This document shows, one piece after another, positions 1 to 9,322 of a DNA stretch of 9,322 nucleotides (its first letter is position 1; each line of letters begins with the position of its first letter). Location of the stretch: IMG/VR virus record IMGVR_UViG_2574180220_000002. The stretch is one strand, 5' to 3'. Under the pieces are notes generated by a model that was not told the DNA's origin, did not search any database, and was given only the letters and a program-made list of their open reading frames with translations. The position numbers and the translations under genes were made by a program. This stretch comes from a virus (Duplodnaviria; Heunggongvirae; Uroviricota; Caudoviricetes).

Positions 1-861
1 ATGAGATTCAGCACCCCATTACGGTATCCTGGTGGTAAAGGTAAATTAACTAACTATCTATCAAAGATCATTATGATCAATGGTTTAGATGGTTGCGAAT
101 ATGTTGAGCCGTATGCTGGTGGTGCTGGAGTAGCCATTAATTTACTTTTGTCTGGGAAAGCATCACGTATACATTTAAACGATCTTAATAACGCCATTTT
201 TTGTTTTTGGCGGTCAATTCTAGAAGAAACTGATCAGTTTTGCCAATTAATTGAAAAAACCCCTGTGAATATGGATGAATGGTATAAGAATAAAAATATC
301 ATTAGTAATCAATGTGATTATTCCTCATTGGAAGTTGGATTCGCTACGTTTTTCCTTAATCGAACAAATCGGTCAGGAATTTTGTTAGGTGGTGTAATTG
401 GTGGTAAGGAACAAAATGGAAAATGGAAAATAGATGCTCGATTTAATAAGGTTGATTTAGTAAACCGTATTAAGGTAATAGCAGACCGTAAATCTGATAT
501 TTGTATCTATAACCAAGATGCTAAATCATTCTTGCAAAATACTGTAACTGGATTCCCATTAAAAACATTGCTTTATCTTGACCCTCCATATTATGTTAAA
601 GGAAAGGGCTTGTATCAAAACCATTATAGTCATGATGATCATGTCGAAATTGCTAATATTATAAAATCTAATTCAAAGCATCCATGGATTGTATCTTACG
701 ATAATACTGTTGAAATAAACAACATGTACACTGGTCTTAGAAAAATTGAGTACGGTATCAGCTATAGTGCTCAATCTAGGTACCAAGGGCCAGAAGTAAT
801 CTTTTTTTGTGATAGCATTTCTATTCCTGATGATATGGATCCTACAAGAGTCAAATTATAG
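1..861 (+). CDS. DNA adenine (N6) methyltransferase, Dam/D12 family
   Basis: 286-aa ORF with ATG at position 1. Contains N-terminal RYPGGK, EPYAGGAGV (AdoMet-binding motif I-like), FFLNRTNRSG and the catalytic DPPY tetrapeptide (LYLDPPYYV), in the order typical of Dam/DpnM/T4 Dam. Visibly much more AT-rich than the rest of the window (by eye, not computed). The 3' end overlaps the convergent integrase gene by 11 bp. Confidence 0.85.
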   Translation: MRFSTPLRYPGGKGKLTNYLSKIIMINGLDGCEYVEPYAGGAGVAINLLLSGKASRIHLNDLNNAIFCFWRSILEETDQFCQLIEKTPVNMDEWYKNKNIISNQCDYSSLEVGFATFFLNRTNRSGILLGGVIGGKEQNGKWKIDARFNKVDLVNRIKVIADRKSDICIYNQDAKSFLQNTVTGFPLKTLLYLDPPYYVKGKGLYQNHYSHDDHVEIANIIKSNSKHPWIVSYDNTVEINNMYTGLRKIEYGISYSAQSRYQGPEVIFFCDSISIPDDMDPTRVKL

Positions 862-1981
862 CTATTTTACTCCAATCTTTCCCTCGGTCATCATGGTAGC
901 GATCTGTTTGCTGCTGGGTTTTATGGCCCAGTAGCTTTCTAGTATCGATCCCCTGTTCTTTGTACAGACGTTCAGATAAAGACCGTTGTTCATGGAATGT
1001 GGCAGGTGAACCTTTCCCCCAATCAATTCCTGCTAAATCTCTTGCTTTACTGAAATTCATAGTCAAGGTATTGGCTTTAACCTGTGCGCCGCGTTCAGCC
1101 TGTGAAGTAGTACGAAAAAAATGTACAAGGTATGGGCTGACAGCATAGTCACGGCAACGGGCTACTACATCGCGCAAACTCCAGTTAATCGCATTGAGGC
1201 GCAGAGAAAGCGGGATGGCGATTTTGCTCCCGGTTTTTTCCTGGATGACGTGAAGATGATCATCCCAAATATCGCTAAATTTCATACGTGAGATATCACC
1301 TAACCGTTGGCCGGTAACCAGTGCTAACAGCATGGCATTCCCCATATAACGATGACTGGCATCTGCAATATCAAAGATTTTTTGCCACTCTTCAAGATTT
1401 AACCGTTGTCGGGTAATTTTTCTTCTGGGTTGTTTGGTTGCCAGTGCAGGATTATAGCCCGGAGGGACTTCCCCATAGTGTTGTGCCTCCTTGAATACAT
1501 CAATTAGAACGGAGCGGACTACTTGCGCCATCCTCGGTTGCCCGGCAGTGATATACTCGTCAAGCAATTGTGCTATATCCCTTACATCAACTGATGAAAT
1601 TAATTTCATTCCTGCTCGTTCCCTGAGCAAGGATACTGGTTTGGCTTTCTGTTTATAGGTGTTGAGCTTTATATCGCCACTTTCCAGTCTGTCATCCTGG
1701 ATTGCTTGATAGCGATCTAACCAGGTTGACGTTGTGATTGCTTTTCCTTTGCTGGTTGCGATCCTGTCACTGATAGCCAGAATCTGCCGGGTTCTTTGCT
1801 CAGCCAGGCGTGAATTTGCCTCAGTGGCAATAGCAATGGCTTCAGCTTCGTTTGTGCCTAAAGAATGAAACTTCCCGGTCACTGGATGTTTATATCGCCA
1901 ATAGACTTTATTTACTTTTCTGCTATAAAGCGGATACAAGTTCGGGACTGAAACATTATTTTTACGTGGTCTGGCTGCCAT
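851..1981 (-). CDS. int: Tyrosine site-specific integrase, lambda Int family
   Basis: 376-aa ORF starting at ATG (1981..1979). Collinear with lambda Int from the N-terminal arm-binding region to the catalytic C-terminus: TGQRLGDI (Arg), HEQRSLSERLY (His-x-x-Arg), LLGHK...DRYHDD (His and the Tyr nucleophile). Appears intact. Confidence 0.95.
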   Translation of the reverse strand: MAARPRKNNVSVPNLYPLYSRKVNKVYWRYKHPVTGKFHSLGTNEAEAIAIATEANSRLAEQRTRQILAISDRIATSKGKAITTSTWLDRYQAIQDDRLESGDIKLNTYKQKAKPVSLLRERAGMKLISSVDVRDIAQLLDEYITAGQPRMAQVVRSVLIDVFKEAQHYGEVPPGYNPALATKQPRRKITRQRLNLEEWQKIFDIADASHRYMGNAMLLALVTGQRLGDISRMKFSDIWDDHLHVIQEKTGSKIAIPLSLRLNAINWSLRDVVARCRDYAVSPYLVHFFRTTSQAERGAQVKANTLTMNFSKARDLAGIDWGKGSPATFHEQRSLSERLYKEQGIDTRKLLGHKTQQQTDRYHDDRGKDWSKIAII

Positions 1982-2222
1982 TACCTAAAATCCTTTGTAG
2001 AATAATAGAATCACTTTTCTTTATTACTGGAGTAACTAACTCCCCAACTAACTCTGCATCCTCACGCACTCGCCATAGTCGACCTTGTTTCATTGCCGGT
2101 GGACAAAATAAATTCTGCTTAGCATAACGACGTAATGTGGACACACTTGGAGGATTACTCCTAAATTTTTCCGCAGCCCATTCCTCAAGTGTCAGCATTT
2201 GAAGCATTTTTGATAACCTCAT
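1962..2222 (-). CDS. xis: Excisionase (Xis, winged-helix DNA-binding family)
   Basis: Small ORF immediately upstream of int, overlapping its start by 20 nt, the usual int-xis arrangement. Product contains LTLEEWAAEKF...PSVSTLRRYAKQ...GRLWRVREDAE, typical of phage excisionases. Start is ambiguous: ATG at 2222 has no SD, while the in-frame ATG at 2207 (MLQMLTLEEW) has AGG about 9 nt upstream. Confidence 0.7.
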   Translation of the reverse strand: MRLSKMLQMLTLEEWAAEKFRSNPPSVSTLRRYAKQNLFCPPAMKQGRLWRVREDAELVGELVTPVIKKSDSIILQRILGNGSQTT

Positions 2223-2250
2223 TTCTTTTGCTACAAAACTATTTCACTAG

Positions 2251-2799
2251 TTAATTTCGCTGTCTGGATTGTTTATGTATCTTATGCAGCTCTTTAAAGC
2301 GTTCCATAAACATCCCGTAGGCATGGCCCGGTGCCAGTGGAATCACGTTGAACATCTCTGTTGCCGGGATACCTTCCAGCACAGGCCAGAAAGAGCCATC
2401 ATCAAGCCCGAGATCGCGGCGTTCGGTTGCCAGCATGATGAGATCGGCATATTTCACGGGCGTACTCATAACTGGGGGTAACCCGTATTTCTCACGGATT
2501 ACGGCGTCTATTTTTTCTTCCATTTGTTTATAGTCAGGAAGAAGGCGTTTCAGTGGTGCGGGAATGTCCTGGCAATACGCTTCTGTTGCATCATGCATTA
2601 ACGCTTCAAAAGCAAATTCCTGCGGCACCAACTGGCTGCAAAGAACCGCATGTTGGGCGACGCTGTAGAAGTGCGAAAGATGACCGGCAAAGCGACAGAT
2701 ATTTGAAAGGGAAACCGCGATATCGTTAATATCGATGTCGTCTTTATTTATCCTGTCATAATAAAAATGCTTCCCGGAAAAAGTTTTAATAAATGACAT
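2251..2799 (-). CDS. yfdR: HD-domain phosphohydrolase (YfdR/YfbR-like 5'-deoxynucleotidase family)
   Basis: Conserved H...HD metal-binding signature (HLSHFYSVAQHA ... LMHDATEAY). The track ORF begins at GTG 2826; I prefer ATG at 2799 (MSFIKTF), which has GGAG 6 nt upstream, giving about 182 aa. Size and position, downstream of a DUF2303 gene and upstream of xis/int, match YfdR of CPS-53-type prophages (from memory). Confidence 0.8.
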   Translation of the reverse strand: MSFIKTFSGKHFYYDRINKDDIDINDIAVSLSNICRFAGHLSHFYSVAQHAVLCSQLVPQEFAFEALMHDATEAYCQDIPAPLKRLLPDYKQMEEKIDAVIREKYGLPPVMSTPVKYADLIMLATERRDLGLDDGSFWPVLEGIPATEMFNVIPLAPGHAYGMFMERFKELHKIHKQSRQRN

Positions 2800-2890
2800 T
2801 TTGTTCTCCACGTATATGCGCTGCACCGCGCTGAATTTTGGTTAAAGAAAACCCTCGCCATCAGGCGATTATTGAGTTAATTACGTTTCC

Positions 2891-2916
2891 ATAAATGCCC
2901 CCGCAGGGGCATTTGC
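2891..2916 (-). terminator. Stable GC-rich hairpin between the DUF2303 gene and the HD gene; candidate intra-operon intrinsic terminator
   Basis: Perfect 9-bp stem AAATGCCCC (2893-2901) / GGGGCATTT (2906-2914) with 4-nt loop. On the minus strand the hairpin runs into UUUAU. It starts 12 nt after the stop of the upstream gene (2927). Confidence 0.4.
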
Positions 2917-2926
2917 AGTAATGAAA

Positions 2927-3751
2927 TCAGGCGGTGAAAGTACCAATAAGGGTTTCTACTTTGCTGTCTTTGAATTTTTCAACAAGCAGATCACGAAATT
3001 CGTTAGCCATTTCTTCCTGTACTGCTTCCAGCTGAATAATGCGCAGAACCAGTACAGGGCGATCACCAGTGATAATGCTGAGGCGTAATTTAAACGGACG
3101 TTCTTTCAGGCCTTCAAACGGAACGCATTTAAACTCAAATGCTACTGGCATAATGTCTTTGGTTTTCGCTTCGACAGACTCCATCAGAGAGCGTTTGCCG
3201 CTGAAGTCATTGTCTTCAAAATCAGCGGTATGGTTTGCTTCAATCGTGATTTTACGGACCGCCGCAGCCGCTTTTGTTGCCTGAATGGCGTCACCATTAG
3301 CATCAAAGCCCACAAGGTAGTCGGCCCAGTCTTCAATCCATTCTGCCAGTGACTTCTGGGAGTTACGCTCGCCGTTAACAGACAACAGAGCAGAGAACGG
3401 TGCTGTCTTTTTCAGTTTGAGAGTGGCGGTGTTATCTGCGTGACCTGGTTCATCAATAGTACCCAGGTTAAGCACACTGACGGCACGCATATTATCGGCA
3501 TCGATAAAGCAGCGGGTGCCTTCATCTGCAAGATCTTTAGAATAACGGGTAAAGTCATCGATGCTGGCAGTGGAAAGTGCACCACGGAAACGGAAGCGAT
3601 TTAAATTAAATTTTTCCAGATCATGAATGCGGAAATTCTCAGGCAATGCCACAGCATCGGCACCAATCTTACTGATAATTTCATTAACACCCTGAGCAGA
3701 AATAAGGGCATGGATTTGATTAATTGCGGTTGCGTCTAAGTTCTGAGACAT
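2927..3751 (-). CDS. yfdQ: DUF2303-family phage protein (YfdQ-like), function unknown
   Basis: 274-aa ORF with ATG at 3751 and GAGGA 6 nt upstream. Coding-like composition. Length and position (between the 120-aa gene and the HD gene) match YfdQ of CPS-53-type prophages, recalled from memory and not verified. Confidence 0.75.
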
Positions 3752-3816
3752 AATAAGTCCTCACTATATAAAGATATTCAGTGATGAGATAAATAATCAG
3801 TTAATTAAGAACGATA

Positions 3817-4179
3817 TTAATGACCTGCTGCGCGTAGTTTTCCGTCAGGTTCACCGGCAAGAGTCAGTAATTGTCCCTGGTCTTCCTGCAGAATAGTCAG
3901 GCGACCACCGCGATTGACATACATCGGTGTTTCGGTGGTGTCTTCTTCGGAAATTTTCCCGCGGTTAGTCGGGCGAACATATGAGAGTTTGTGTTTGATT
4001 TTCACACGGTTCTCATCAAATGGTTCGATTTCCAGGTTGAGCGAGACCTTACCTTTGGTTTTCGTGTTCATCACACCGGAAGCGACTTCACTGAGAACTG
4101 CGCCGATTTTGGTTTCAAATACGCCGCCGTCCAGCTCCCCGATAAATGCCTGCACATCAGTACTGCGTTCGCTAGCCAT
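3817..4179 (-). CDS. Hypothetical early-left phage protein, about 120 aa (YfdP-like by position and size)
   Basis: The track ORF (3817..4365) begins at TTG, and its first 62 codons are low-complexity (R/C/S/G-rich) and cross a structured non-coding element. ATG at 4179 is preceded by GGGGAG 7 nt upstream and gives MASERSTDVQAF..., 120 aa; ATG at 4197 is an alternative. No recognisable catalytic motif. Confidence 0.6.
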   Translation of the reverse strand: MASERSTDVQAFIGELDGGVFETKIGAVLSEVASGVMNTKTKGKVSLNLEIEPFDENRVKIKHKLSYVRPTNRGKISEEDTTETPMYVNRGGRLTILQEDQGQLLTLAGEPDGKLRAAGH

Positions 4180-4227
4180 TTTGCTGCTCCCCATCATATC
4201 GACCCTGCAAGGTCGGTTGGTTTCTCC

Positions 4228-4327
4228 ACAAAACAGAGAAGAACACCTGCGGTGGCAGCCGCCCGGATGGATTGGGTTATGAGCCCGTCGTCCGGTGATG
4301 CTCTTCTCTGTTTTGTAAAAAGAGCGG
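4228..4327 (-). promoter_or_regulatory. boxA-like motif followed by a long structured hairpin in the leader of the early-left operon (candidate nut/put-type antitermination element or structured 5' UTR)
   Basis: Minus strand reads CGCTCTTTTTACA (4326->4314), resembling boxA (lambda nut CGCTCTTA; rrn TGCTCTTTAACA). It is followed by a perfect 15-bp inverted repeat, ACAAAACAGAGAAGA (4228-4242) / TCTTCTCTGTTTTGT (4302-4316), enclosing 59 nt with nested stems (CCGGA 4263-4267 / TCCGG 4291-4295; GCGG 4249-4252 / CCGC 4259-4262). Lies about 50 nt upstream of the 120-aa gene start. Confidence 0.35.
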
Positions 4328-4860
4328 TACCTGCCGGAAGCAAGTGTACAAACTGGTACCGCCAAAGCAGTGGCTGTTGTGGTGACCGGTGCTGATCTCC
4401 GGCTTGCGGTTATTTCAGACTCTCACGGGCGTTTAATTGCCCCGCCGAACAGCTCTTTTCCGCAATAGCTGCAATGTCTTTCGCGCATCAGTCTGCGCAT
4501 TCACCACAACGCTGAGAGCACTTAGCCAGTTACGGCACCACACTTTGTCGCGGTTCCATAAATGCCCTCATCGTTGCACCCTGGTCTCTTCCCAGGCGTC
4601 AAACCGAATCGCCACGCTGGTTAGGCGTCTTATCAGCATCATCATTGACTTGCACATTCCGGCTACCTAGTTTGTTTGCTCGAGCAAGGAGTGGATTGTC
4701 CCCTTTAACGTCACCAGACCGCTAACGACGCATGTGCCATACGCCGTGTTACAACCAAATTTTGTTAGTACCTTGTTTGTTTGTCTGGAAAGAAAGATAA
4801 AATGAAGTTGCGTATTATGCAAGTGTTTTTGTTGCGAGATATGCAATTTAAAGGGTGATG

Positions 4861-4881
4861 AAAAGCCACCTTTGGGTGGCT
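4861..4881 (-). terminator. Candidate intrinsic terminator downstream of the cI-like gene
   Basis: Stem AGCCACC (4864-4870) / GGTGGCT (4875-4881) with loop TTTG. On the minus strand it is followed by only UUUC, a short U-tract. Lies about 20 bp after the repressor stop (4902-4904). Confidence 0.4.
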
Positions 4882-4901
4882 AATTGATGAGGAGGTAAGG
4901 G

Positions 4902-5594
4902 TTAATTGTGTCGCTTAAGGGTTTGTGACTGGCTGATTAAGACCTTTCCAAAGACCATAAACCGGTGTTCATTTTCGCTGGTAATTCCCCATTCACGGTA
5001 AATCTGGTTATCAGAAATCACCAGTAGTTTGTCAGGTATCATTTGCAGTCGTTTGACATAAATTTTATCATCAAAACCAAATACATAGATACCATCTCCA
5101 TCAAACTGATTGATACTGACATCAACGAAGATGAGATCTCCTGGCTCAATGGTTGGACACATACTGTCCCCACGAACGTTGATAACTTTAATGTGATTGG
5201 CTGGCCGTCCGCCAAACATCGATACAGCATTATCAGTTCTGTATTCAATGGCATGAATCACATCAATGACATCACCGCCCTGGATAAGGCCATTTCCCGC
5301 ACTGGCACTGACATCCAGCATTTCAATACGGAATACATCCTTCACCTGCGCAACATCCTCACTAATACTGTTTTTACATACAGTATTACTTTTGACGTCT
5401 GAGGTAAAGAGATCAGCAATATCAACACCTAAGCTCCTGGCAATATTACTCAGGGCTTGTTCAGTGAATTGTTTCTGCTTACCTGTTTCCAGGCGTGAGA
5501 TATTCGCCGCATCCACTCCTATTGCTTCAGCGAGATCGGCGATTTTCATGTTCTTCGCCTGGCGAAGTTGTCTGACTCGGTTTCCTATGTTCAT
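4902..5594 (-). CDS. cI: CI-type phage repressor (N-terminal XRE HTH, C-terminal S24 LexA-like autopeptidase)
   Basis: 230 aa. HTH: RVRQLRQAKNMKIADLAEAIGVDAANISRLETGK. Candidate Ala-Gly cleavage site in SASAGNG. S24 catalytic Ser in GDSMCP and Lys in YVKRL. Divergent from a cro-like gene across an operator-rich 97-bp region. Confidence 0.9.
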   Translation of the reverse strand: MNIGNRVRQLRQAKNMKIADLAEAIGVDAANISRLETGKQKQFTEQALSNIARSLGVDIADLFTSDVKSNTVCKNSISEDVAQVKDVFRIEMLDVSASAGNGLIQGGDVIDVIHAIEYRTDNAVSMFGGRPANHIKVINVRGDSMCPTIEPGDLIFVDVSINQFDGDGIYVFGFDDKIYVKRLQMIPDKLLVISDNQIYREWGITSENEHRFMVFGKVLISQSQTLKRHN

Positions 5595-5691
5595 GCGTTT
5601 ATTACATTTCTTTATTGCGCGTTAAGCAAATCAACTTGCGCAAAATATTTGCGTGAAATAATATGCTTATCACGCAATATGTGGAGGTAAT
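5595..5691. promoter_or_regulatory. Divergent cI/cro control region with repeated operator half-sites and candidate back-to-back promoters
   Basis: TTGCG/CGCAA half-sites recur as inverted repeats: TTGC-N7-GCAA (5615-5629), CGCAAA-ATA-TTTGCG (5639-5653), TTGCGTGA-N13-TCACGCAA (5649-5677). Candidate rightward promoter: -35 TTGCGC (5636-5641), 17 bp, -10 TAATAT (5659-5664), then GGAGG (5683-5687) and cro ATG at 5692. Candidate leftward promoter on the minus strand: -35 TTGCTT (5629-5624), 17 bp, -10 TGTAAT (5606-5601), 6 nt, then the A of the cI ATG, suggesting a leaderless cI mRNA. Confidence 0.55.
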
Positions 5692-5916
5692 ATGCAATCA
5701 CCATTACGGAATGTGCGTAAGGCGCACGGATTTACTTTGCAGCATGTTGCTGCTGGCGTTCAGGTCAATCCAGCGACGCTGAGTCGTATTGAAAGACTGG
5801 AACAAATTCCATCTATCGATCTTGCAGAACGTCTGGCCAATTTTTTTAAGGATGAAATCAGCGAAATGCAGATTCTTTATCGTATTTCAGGGATGCTCGT
5901 GCCGAACTGGGTATAA
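5692..5916 (+). CDS. cro: Cro-like XRE-family HTH regulator
   Basis: 74-aa ORF with GGAGG SD. HTH: LRNVRKAHGFTLQHVAAGVQVNPATLSRIE. Divergent from the cI-like gene. The C-terminal tail (from about residue 58) overlaps an out-of-frame HTH-coding segment, so the true C-terminus is uncertain. Confidence 0.7.
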   Translation: MQSPLRNVRKAHGFTLQHVAAGVQVNPATLSRIERLEQIPSIDLAERLANFFKDEISEMQILYRISGMLVPNWV

Positions 5917-5954
5917 CGGCAAAACAAATTGCCGAAGCCACAGGTAAGAAAAAT

Positions 5955-8686
<2,732 letters not shown>

Positions 8687-8687
<1 letters not shown>

Positions 8688-9322
8688 TGGAATTCAGAAT
8701 GAGTGAACAACCACGGACCATAAAAATTTATAATCTGCTGGCCGGAACTAATGAATTTATTGGTGAAGGTGACGCATATATTCCGCCTCATACAGGTCTG
8801 CCAGCAAACAGTACCTATATTGCACCGCCAGATATTCCGGCTGGCTTCGTGGCTGTTTTCAACAGTGATGAGTCATCGTGGCATCTCGTTGAAGATCATC
8901 GGGGTAAAACGGTTTATGACGTGGCTTCCGGCGACGCGTTATTTATTTCTGAACTCGGCTCATTACCGGAAAATGTTACCTGGTTATCGCCGGAAGGGGA
9001 GTTTCAGAAGTGGAACGGCACAGCCTGGGTGAAAGATGCAGAAGCAGAAAAACTGTTCCGGATCCGGGAGGCGGAAGAAACAAAAAACAGCCTGATGCAG
9101 GTAGCCAGTGAGCATATTGCGCCACTTCAGGATGCTGTAGATCTGGAAATCGCAACGGAGGAAGAAACCTCATTGCTGGAAGCCTGGAAAAAGTATCGGG
9201 TGTTGCTGAACCGTGTTGATACATCAACTGCACCTGATATTGAGTGGCCTGCAACCCCTGTTATGGATAATCGTTCCTGTTGTAGCCACAGTCACGTCAT
9301 ATACAAGAACTTGCTGGCCTAA
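8687..9322 (+). CDS. tfa: Tail fibre assembly protein (Tfa family chaperone)
   Basis: 211 aa, starting [54 protein letters not shown]..., the conserved Tfa N-terminus of lambdoid/Rac/e14-type prophages. Translationally coupled to stf through the ATAATGG overlap. The last ~17 residues ([18 protein letters not shown]) look like a non-canonical extension. Confidence 0.88.

Follow-up and report, generated by a model that had tools for sequence, protein, structure and literature searches.

This report concerns a 9,322-nucleotide stretch of DNA, hereafter the window, which is listed in IMG/VR as virus record IMGVR_UViG_2574180220_000002. Our main finding, to which we give a probability of roughly 80%, is that the window forms the middle 9.3 kb of a defective prophage of the lambda type, about 16.7 kb long, which is of the same kind as the e14 element of Escherichia coli K-12 and sits in the 3' end of icd, in a chromosome of the E. 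coli type. The element carries a complete excision set and an intact CI-type repressor; it can probably still excise after DNA damage, but it cannot form particles. An initial annotation of the window had pictured a cryptic prophage, possibly still excisable and SOS-responsive, unable to form particles and perhaps endowed with cargo useful to its host. As far as sequence analysis goes, this picture stands, but two details are to be corrected: the cro gene is truncated, and the tail fiber assembly gene tfa is intact.

An e14-type prophage in the 3' end of icd

A longer locus in assembly GCA_000703685.1, here called L003, contains the sequence of the window without any difference (positions 4310-13631); two other loci used throughout are L008 (NZ_CP143092.1, from E. 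coli EC190486, designated H1) and L011, the e14 locus of K-12. In L003, the 3' end of icd is duplicated: two segments of 215 bp (2198-2412 and 18848-19062), 89% identical and 16.65 kb apart, comprise the last 164 nucleotides of icd and 51 nucleotides past its stop codon. The left boundary of this duplication is the same as that of e14 in K-12, and the locus displays the whole e14 arrangement, namely an insertion in the icd 3' end, a phage-borne replacement of that end and a displaced icdC copy. The motif GGTTATCAAAA, a candidate arm-type site for the integrase (Int), is present in two copies beside attL, just past the phage-borne icd end, and in one copy near attR, 129 bp left of its core. It is found at matching places in K-12 e14, though the arm DNA around it has diverged, and it is enriched (5 sites for 0.92 expected, a number reached in none of 100 shuffles). 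The icd duplication, the orthologues of IntE and XisE described below and the conservation of GGTTATCAAAA therefore identify an e14-site prophage with both att sites in place. A further perfect copy of GGTTATCAAAA, distant from the att sites, lies directly upstream of the xis start codon (2208-2218, minus strand); it could be an Int-binding site regulating xis, or a chance match.

Both attL and attR, and most of the cargo, sit outside the window. The interval 851-5916, to which the element had been confined at first, is thus too small, as the prophage reaches beyond the window on both sides. A tRNA scan of the window returned no gene, and a tRNA-linked att site within it was rejected on this ground.

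All sizeable open reading frames (ORFs) of the window were surveyed against Pfam. This survey, combined with the comparison to an intact relative, depicts a defective prophage: regulatory and recombination genes are kept, while terminase, portal, capsid, tail and lysis genes are absent or fragmentary.

Integrase and excisionase

The int gene (851-1981, minus strand) encodes a lambda-type tyrosine integrase of 376 amino acids (PF09003 and PF00589), the orthologue of K-12 IntE, to which it is 95% identical over 375 amino acids. The claim that it retains all catalytic residues was borne out by an alignment with solved structures of lambda Int, in which R226, K249, H330, R333, H353 and Y362 fall opposite R212, K235, H308, R311, H333 and Y342. 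Its arm-DNA-binding domain is complete as well, PF09003 covering residues 1-73 and positions 1-74 of the 74 in the profile (E 7.1e-37). The presence of xis, also announced by the initial annotation, is equally clear: the gene (1962-2207, minus strand, in an open frame that runs to 2222) encodes an excisionase of 81 amino acids, which matches the Pfam family Exc (PF07825) and is 93% identical in protein sequence to its orthologue, K-12 XisE.

Repressor, operators and cro

The repressor gene (4902-5594, minus strand) encodes a CI-type protein of 230 amino acids, with an N-terminal helix-turn-helix (HTH) and a Peptidase_S24 domain in Pfam (PF00717, E 6.4e-19). Its sequence matches the repressor of an intact prophage at 100%, differs by one substitution from mEp460 cI, and is 99% identical to PhiR63_1 cI. 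Its residues S144 and K181 stand opposite S60 and K97 of UmuD, the lysine column being marked by the K97A mutant chain 8gmt_B, and K181 also aligns with K156 of LexA. Both residues are invariant in 119-120 of 120 repressor homologues (68-99% identity). The pair A99-G100 is likewise invariant in 119 of these 120 proteins, while position 107 is a serine in 103 of them, which designates A99-G100 as the conserved candidate for the scissile bond. The alternative cleavage site G106-G107 was rejected, on family conservation only. The autocleavage site and Ser/Lys dyad claimed at the outset are therefore kept, cleavage itself being a prediction.

The start of the repressor gene has no Shine-Dalgarno sequence; a TGTAAT hexamer precedes the ATG by 6 nucleotides, and the mRNA may be leaderless, by analogy with lambda cI. 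Directly after the gene, a terminator scan detected an intrinsic terminator (4854-4881, minus strand; -11.8 kcal/mol, z -4.22). Direct control by LexA was considered and rejected, as the single exact CTGT-N8-ACAG of the 9.3 kb is unconvincing and matches with one mismatch are mildly enriched only. This site, the LexA-box-like palindrome CTGTTTTTACATACAG, is at 5368-5383, within the repressor ORF.

Operator-like sites lie on both sides of the repressor gene. The putative PL/OL region (4794-4846, minus strand), just past the terminator of the repressor gene, contains two exact TTGC-N7-GCAA sites (4808-4822 and 4832-4846). They overlap a candidate PL promoter, read off the sequence, with a -35 hexamer TTGCAT, a spacer of 17 nucleotides and a -10 hexamer TATCTT. 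The putative OR (5615-5677) has an exact site at 5615-5629, 20 bp upstream of the repressor start, and a site with one mismatch at 5663-5677, which adjoins cro. Exactly midway between them is a 15-bp palindrome (5639-5653), and the resulting spacing of 24 bp is that of OL. Four exact TTGC-N7-GCAA sites are present in the window for 0.37 expected, a count reached in one of 200 shuffles; when one mismatch is allowed, there is no enrichment window-wide (7 for 6.45 expected). The arrangement of the sites mirrors that of lambda OL and OR, and we infer their assignment to promoters. Compared with five relatives, the operator regions differ by only one or two bases.

The truncated cro gene (cro', 5692-5916, plus strand) encodes 74 amino acids. 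Its ATG, at 5692, is preceded five nucleotides upstream by GGAGG, so that the good Shine-Dalgarno sequence noted initially is indeed there, but the gene itself is not complete. An alignment with three Cro proteins of 86 amino acids gives the native length, of which residues 1-63 remain, followed by 11 foreign residues (64-74) encoded by out-of-frame methyltransferase DNA. The HTH (Pfam HTH_3, residues 5-52) is kept, and the native C-terminal tail, PARFQSSQNQNGFKPQEQEVSRG, is lost.

Three deletions removed the lytic genes

The joints that interrupt the element were defined by BLAST against the intact icd prophage of H1, a full lambda-type prophage that is collinear with the element and whose left arm is 98.8% identical to positions 1-5881 of the window. 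The first joint, J1 (5880/5881), leads from cro codon 63/64 to the interior of a late-region methyltransferase gene, with a microhomology of 2 nucleotides (TC). Relative to the intact prophage, it entailed the loss of about 8 kb, including ymfL, the replication genes, RusA and Q. What remains of the methyltransferase gene is its 3' part (5882-6443, plus strand; ORF 5955-6443), which encodes the C-terminal FxGxG region of an N6/N4 DNA methyltransferase (PF01555, profile positions 132-220 of 221), the N-terminal half being gone. From J1 to the second joint, J2, the DNA is 100% identical to intact methyltransferase-essD regions of many E. coli. It comprises a stub of an essD-type holin gene (6511-6541, plus strand), ten codons long and with its own Shine-Dalgarno sequence, which J2 (around 6539-6541) fuses in frame to the middle of J. 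The genes lost at J2 are those for lysis, terminase, portal, head and tail.

The J fragment (6539-7008, plus strand; ORF 6448-7065) represents about 157 of some 1160 codons, matches Ig_J and Ig_J_second in Pfam, and is 91% identical to J of the intact relative. The chimeric ORF of 184 amino acids made of the ten holin codons and the J interior (6511-7065) is called as a gene in assembly GCA_000703685.1. At the third joint, J3 (around 7008), J is joined to the middle of stf. The remnant stf' (7009-8687, plus strand; an ORF of 553 amino acids from a GTG at 7026) corresponds to the C-terminal half of the gene, with only Phage_fiber_2 and Collar matched in Pfam; it is without the N-terminal 520 or so residues of a full-length relative of 1075 amino acids, among them the phage_tail_N domain. 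The tail fiber assembly gene tfa (8687-9322, plus strand) is complete (residues 1-194): over these residues its product is 94% identical to full-length Tfa, and the Caudo_TAP profile is matched from 1 to 130 of 131. Its stop codon has been lost, with an E194D change and 17 extra residues (9269-9322), just ahead of a pin-like remnant that is 73% identical to part of K-12 pinE; this may be the trace of a former invertible tail fiber segment. An Rfam match to IS009 (9030-9228; 229.5 bits, E 4.5e-57) lies wholly inside the tfa coding sequence.

Apart from the J fragment, stf' and tfa, the ORF and Pfam survey found no structural gene in the window. The statement that every structural gene is fragmentary thus applies to J and stf, and not to tfa. 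As the three deletions strip the replication, antitermination, late control, lysis, packaging, head and tail genes, no particles can be made.

Two other remnants resemble the element around cro. In the H5 remnant, at a tRNA-Pro gene (L009, around 9570), cro is broken within 3 bp of J1 (5879-5881) and the identical repressor is kept; the H11 remnant, at a tRNA-Thr gene, has the identical repressor, a damaged cro and Avs2 as cargo. The cro break shared by independent remnants fits selection, a recombination hot spot or a module boundary.

The intact prophage of L008 has a peculiarity of its own, in that its major capsid gene is split by an island of about 11 kb (around 15729-26765). This island encodes an integrase, a TIR-domain protein, an Icd-like protein, a primase, a single-stranded DNA-binding protein and an Abi protein, and moreover its own major capsid, decoration proteins and small terminase. 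It looks like a capsid-forming satellite inserted in the capsid gene of its helper.

The PL leader and a conserved structured RNA

About 700 bp (4180-4900) between the early-left genes and the repressor gene are devoid of any credible ORF; in particular, no credible minus-strand ORF was found in 4180-4850, where the indels that separate homologues are not multiples of three. Read on the minus strand, region 4180-4800 has an unusually strong fold (z -5.05). Just upstream of yfdP is a long hairpin (4228-4316, minus strand) with arms of 25 nucleotides (-51.2 kcal/mol, z -6.46). The block that contains it (4192-4365) is 83% identical to the 'ymfH' region of K-12 e14 (L011 7071-7243), directly upstream of xisE. 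The hairpin may act as a terminator, be cleaved by RNase III or bind a protein.

Adjacent to it, positions 4318-4510 (minus strand) hold a homologue of sRNA-17, a small RNA of 193 nucleotides published for E. coli K1 RS218 (PMC7719688); the primers and the alignment in the supplement of that paper match these coordinates. The homologue ends 3' with the hairpin GGCGGUACC...GGUACCGC followed by UCUUUUU, a terminator-like structure located between PL and the early-left genes. The stretch from about 4503 to 4760 was taken as the sRNA-17 promoter (PMC7719688). The 5' end mapped for sRNA-17 falls at the 3' edge of the structured RNA described next, and in phiV10-like phages a tRNA begins at this very position. 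The coincidence suggests processing of a longer PL transcript, of which sRNA-17 may be a product.

The structured leader RNA (4507-4746, minus strand) is about 240 nucleotides long and 78-82% identical to non-coding DNA of unrelated phages. An invariant 20-mer of this RNA was found on 122 distinct viral contigs, of which 69 have a lambdoid context. In 26 others, phiV10-like, the RNA is directly followed by tRNA-Arg(UCU), and in 27, P1-like, it comes directly after a tRNA with anticodon CAT, upstream of ban. The RNA is also present at L012 1501-1745, at L013 1501-1685 and at about 140 further loci, and occurs in representative genomes of Kosakonia, Citrobacter, Klebsiella, Kluyvera, Enterobacter, Buttiauxella, Phytobacter and others.

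Covariation was observed on two alignments (A7 and A9). The structure was derived from 20 sequences, and then projected on a second alignment of 31 sequences, 20 of which came from a separate genome scan. On the first alignment, 95.4% of the cells are paired, compared to 87.4 +/- 0.6% after shuffling, and 21 pairs have changed on both sides, compared to 10.1 +/- 1.8; neither value was reached in 500 shuffles, and sliding the partners lowered pairing to 35-47%. The second alignment behaves similarly, with 87.7% paired (78.8 +/- 0.6% when shuffled), 26 pairs changed on both sides (17.3 +/- 1.9), none of 500 shuffles reaching either value, and 30-46% paired in the slid versions. Several helices are thus backed by compensatory changes, and clean pair switches are seen, such as UA:17/CG:14, CG:18/GC:12 and GC:20/AU:9. 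Rfam 15 returned no family match for this RNA, in the window or in five other members, and no occurrence of its conserved strings was found in the papers searched.

A speculative proposal, to which we give little credence as a whole, is that the leader RNA represents an undescribed family common to lambdoid, P1-like and phiV10-like phages, acting in cis on the early-left transcript. As a hypothesis for its role, it might be a put-like processive antiterminator or a processing module; PL transcription would then pass the sRNA-17 terminator to reach xis-int, and excision would rely on an RNA element and not on an N protein.

Cargo and early-left genes

The first gene of the window (1-861, plus strand) encodes a D12-class N6-adenine methyltransferase (PF02086) that matches the PADLOC model PD-Lambda-5_B over nearly its full length (E 1.9e-121). 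Its G+C content is 0.31-0.36, and it overlaps the 3' end of int convergently by 11 bp. Together with a gene for an AAA_15/AAA_21 ATPase of 569 amino acids (L003 2531-4240), it makes up the left cargo, between attL and int. The ATPase matched 109 PADLOC models, the best 25 of which (HEC-04, AriA, PtuA, NsnB and others) do not include PD-Lambda-5_A; the two genes may form a variant two-gene defense system. PD-lambda-5 is an experimentally validated broad defense, described as a compact prophage version of restriction-modification and abortive infection (PMC9519451). The right cargo (L003 13640-18700) encodes a UvrD-like helicase of 662 amino acids, an overlapping protein of 212 amino acids that belongs to no known family, AbiTii (306 amino acids) and an ORF of 113 amino acids. 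Anti-phage genes are thus likely at both ends of the element, in agreement with the host-beneficial cargo surmised earlier.

The early-left genes, all on the minus strand, are a yfdR-like gene (2251-2799) for an HD-domain 5'-deoxynucleotidase, with weak YfbR-like and HD_3 matches in Pfam and named yfdR in relatives; yfdQ (2927-3751), of the DUF2303 family (PF10065, E 8.5e-92); and yfdP (3817-4179), 120 codons long, which is yfdP in relatives and matches PF27127 through the identical gene call of L003. In K-12, YfdR binds to the initiator DnaA, and the initiation of replication is inhibited when the cluster yfdQ-yfdR-yfdS-yfdT is overexpressed (PMC4776307). An unrepressed early-left operon is therefore possibly harmful and, by analogy with K-12, it is possible that the repressor is retained not just for immunity but also to keep this operon silent. 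The intergenic region of yfdR and yfdQ gave a weak Rfam match to STnc100 (2756-2935, minus strand; 22.7 bits, E 0.12, below the gathering score). Related phage loci in which the leader RNA is found also give STnc100 matches, clear or partial (L063 686-887 and L013 2868-2988).

A model for excision, and its alternatives

In the lambda paradigm, CI cleaves itself, xis and int are expressed from PL, and Int, Xis and IHF act at attL x attR. We propose that the element would follow a comparable course. In the resting state, the repressor would occupy OR and OL, keep PR and PL off, and give immunity to phages of the mEp460 immunity type. Upon DNA damage, activated RecA (RecA*) would trigger self-cleavage at A99-G100 through the S144/K181 dyad, and PL would fire leftward across the leader RNA, sRNA-17 and the long hairpin into yfdP-yfdQ-yfdR-xis-int. 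Acting on attL and attR, Int and Xis would then recombine the two sites, and icd would be restored from the icdC copy. The excised circle would be lost, because it has no origin and no cos site; the outcome would be curing, not transfer. Judged by its genes and sites, the element is probably still excisable and SOS-responsive.

Several points weigh against this reading. The three joints together occur in none of 5,426 complete E. coli genomes, and segments of the element are 98-100% identical to intact relatives, so that the intactness of the remaining genes may stem from recent deletion and not from selection. Two hairpins, one terminator-like (at the end of sRNA-17) and one with 25-bp arms, separate PL from xis-int, and the ORF and Pfam survey found no N- or Q-type antiterminator gene left; read-through to xis-int is therefore not assured, and is an inferred step of the model. 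Concerning the switch itself, substitutions private to the window among the five relatives fall in one OL site (4813) and in the cro-proximal OR site (5668), and a third one (5852) changes G54 of the truncated Cro to D. As for the predicted scissile bond, A99-G100 sits 44 residues before S144, compared to 34-37 in LexA, CI and UmuD, and a four-sequence alignment with YmfK, lambda CI and LexA set their Ala-Gly opposite G106-G107. Finally, excision, repressor cleavage and operator binding are all deduced here from the DNA and its relatives. The overall density of substitutions equals the background divergence, which limits what can be read into those at 4813, 5668 and 5852.

An alternative is that the element is an inert remnant. 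Its modules would look intact only since the deletions are recent, immunity and excision would be under no selection, and inducible excision would have ceased, with transcripts from PL ending at the sRNA-17 terminator or at the long hairpin, or with the switch upset by the operator or Cro changes. The rarity of the arrangement, the near identity to intact relatives, the hairpins, the missing antiterminator and the private substitutions all speak for this view. It is nevertheless unlikely in our estimation. Indeed, e14 of K-12, where the homologous hairpin block directly precedes xisE, does excise upon SOS induction, according to PMC13626634, which cites Greener & Hill 1980, Brody & Hill 1988 and Hill et al. 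1989. Moreover, the same repressor is intact, beside a damaged cro, in independent remnants at other att sites, and the repressor protein of the element is identical to that of the intact relative. Excision of e14 on SOS induction is described as slow and inefficient (PMC13626634, PMC6379469), and no data on the induction of mEp460 or PhiR63_1 were found in the papers searched. That an excisable element has kept its immunity and excision modules may be due either to the benefit of immunity and defense cargo, to the need to silence the early-left genes, or to the youth of the deletions.

The initial annotation also considered mobilization in trans by a helper. In this reading, the element would be a satellite, or would otherwise be packaged by a helper phage after excision. 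The general picture, with int, xis and repressor kept without morphogenesis genes, and tfa and the tail fiber tip retained, is compatible with this idea, which the details make very improbable. No lambda-type cos sequence was found over the full 16.7 kb, nor any homology to the segment of the intact relative that holds cos and Nu1; the window and L003 contain no primase, replication or ori module, small terminase, capsid or redirection genes; and the layout is that of a three-joint deletion derivative, unlike the satellite-like island in the capsid gene of the relative.

The exact chimeric Cro was called on 12 contigs, drawn from an NCBI genome, Logan and an ENA metagenome, one Logan contig being found in 8 samples; the arrangement is therefore real, though rare. 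An exact search for J1 in one genome per species gave no match. That the joints are artefacts of a draft assembly, in which lambdoid repeats often break or mis-join, is scarcely credible given that these 12 contigs are independently sourced and that eight of them are 50-200 kb long.

Comparison with known systems

The element with the complete excision set that we favor is closest to e14. Both have their att site at the icd 3' end, the same duplication boundary, closely related IntE and XisE (95% and 93%), arm-type-like motifs in the same places and a homologous hairpin block upstream of the early-left genes. Their sizes are similar (about 16.7 kb, compared to 15.2 kb for e14), both carry defense cargo between attL and int and at the right end, and in both morphogenesis is reduced to fragments plus tail fiber and tfa genes. 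They differ in several modules: cI and cro are of the mEp460 type here, instead of ymfK (cohE) and ymfT; yfdP, yfdQ and yfdR replace ymfJ, ymfI and ymfH; the tail remnants derive from lambda J and Stf and not from the P2/Mu-type jayE and ymfQ; and the cargo is composed of the PD-lambda-5-type methyltransferase with its ATPase, the helicase and AbiTii, where e14 has lit, mcrA and pin. The truncation of cro is a further difference.

The immunity and early-left module is shared with temperate lambdoid phages, namely mEp460, PhiR63_1 and SfV-type relatives. The block yfdR-yfdQ-yfdP-leader-cI-OR-cro is 95-99% identical to theirs in DNA, the cI proteins are 99-100% identical, and the operator-like sites are the same. 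These are complete phages, with a Cro of 86 amino acids, ymfL, rha, and replication, Q, lysis, head and tail genes, and they have other integrases and att sites, whereas in the element the DNA to the right of cro codon 63 has been deleted or reduced to fragments. The order int-xis-early left-PL/OL-cI-OR-cro, the arm-binding integrase, the S24 repressor and the operators on both sides of it are those of lambda. Unlike lambda, the element has no N gene, its PL leader consists of the structured RNA of about 240 nucleotides and an sRNA, and its operator sequence is different. Over 200 bp also separate its arm-type-like sites from the crossover point, owing to the replacement icd 3' end carried by the phage. 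Satellites such as phage-inducible chromosomal islands (PICI), capsid-forming PICI (cf-PICI) and P4-like elements resemble it in having an integrase and a repressor without a full set of virion genes, but it lacks what defines a satellite, namely a replication module, packaging signals and genes for capsids or redirection.

Conclusions

The element is a further example of the known e14-type defective prophages. It is a routine remnant, in which E. coli keeps the immunity, excision and defense parts of a lambdoid phage and loses the lethal and structural ones, and it illustrates that the e14 site hosts mosaic elements whose immunity modules and defense cargo are interchangeable. For annotation purposes, its joints, truncated cro and att sites are now defined. 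It also offers a clean natural case in which to ask whether an S24 repressor, Int and Xis suffice for SOS-induced curing. The leader RNA is the more novel item: an unannotated family of structured RNAs, residing in the early leaders of phages beside tRNAs, would, if confirmed, matter more than the prophage itself.

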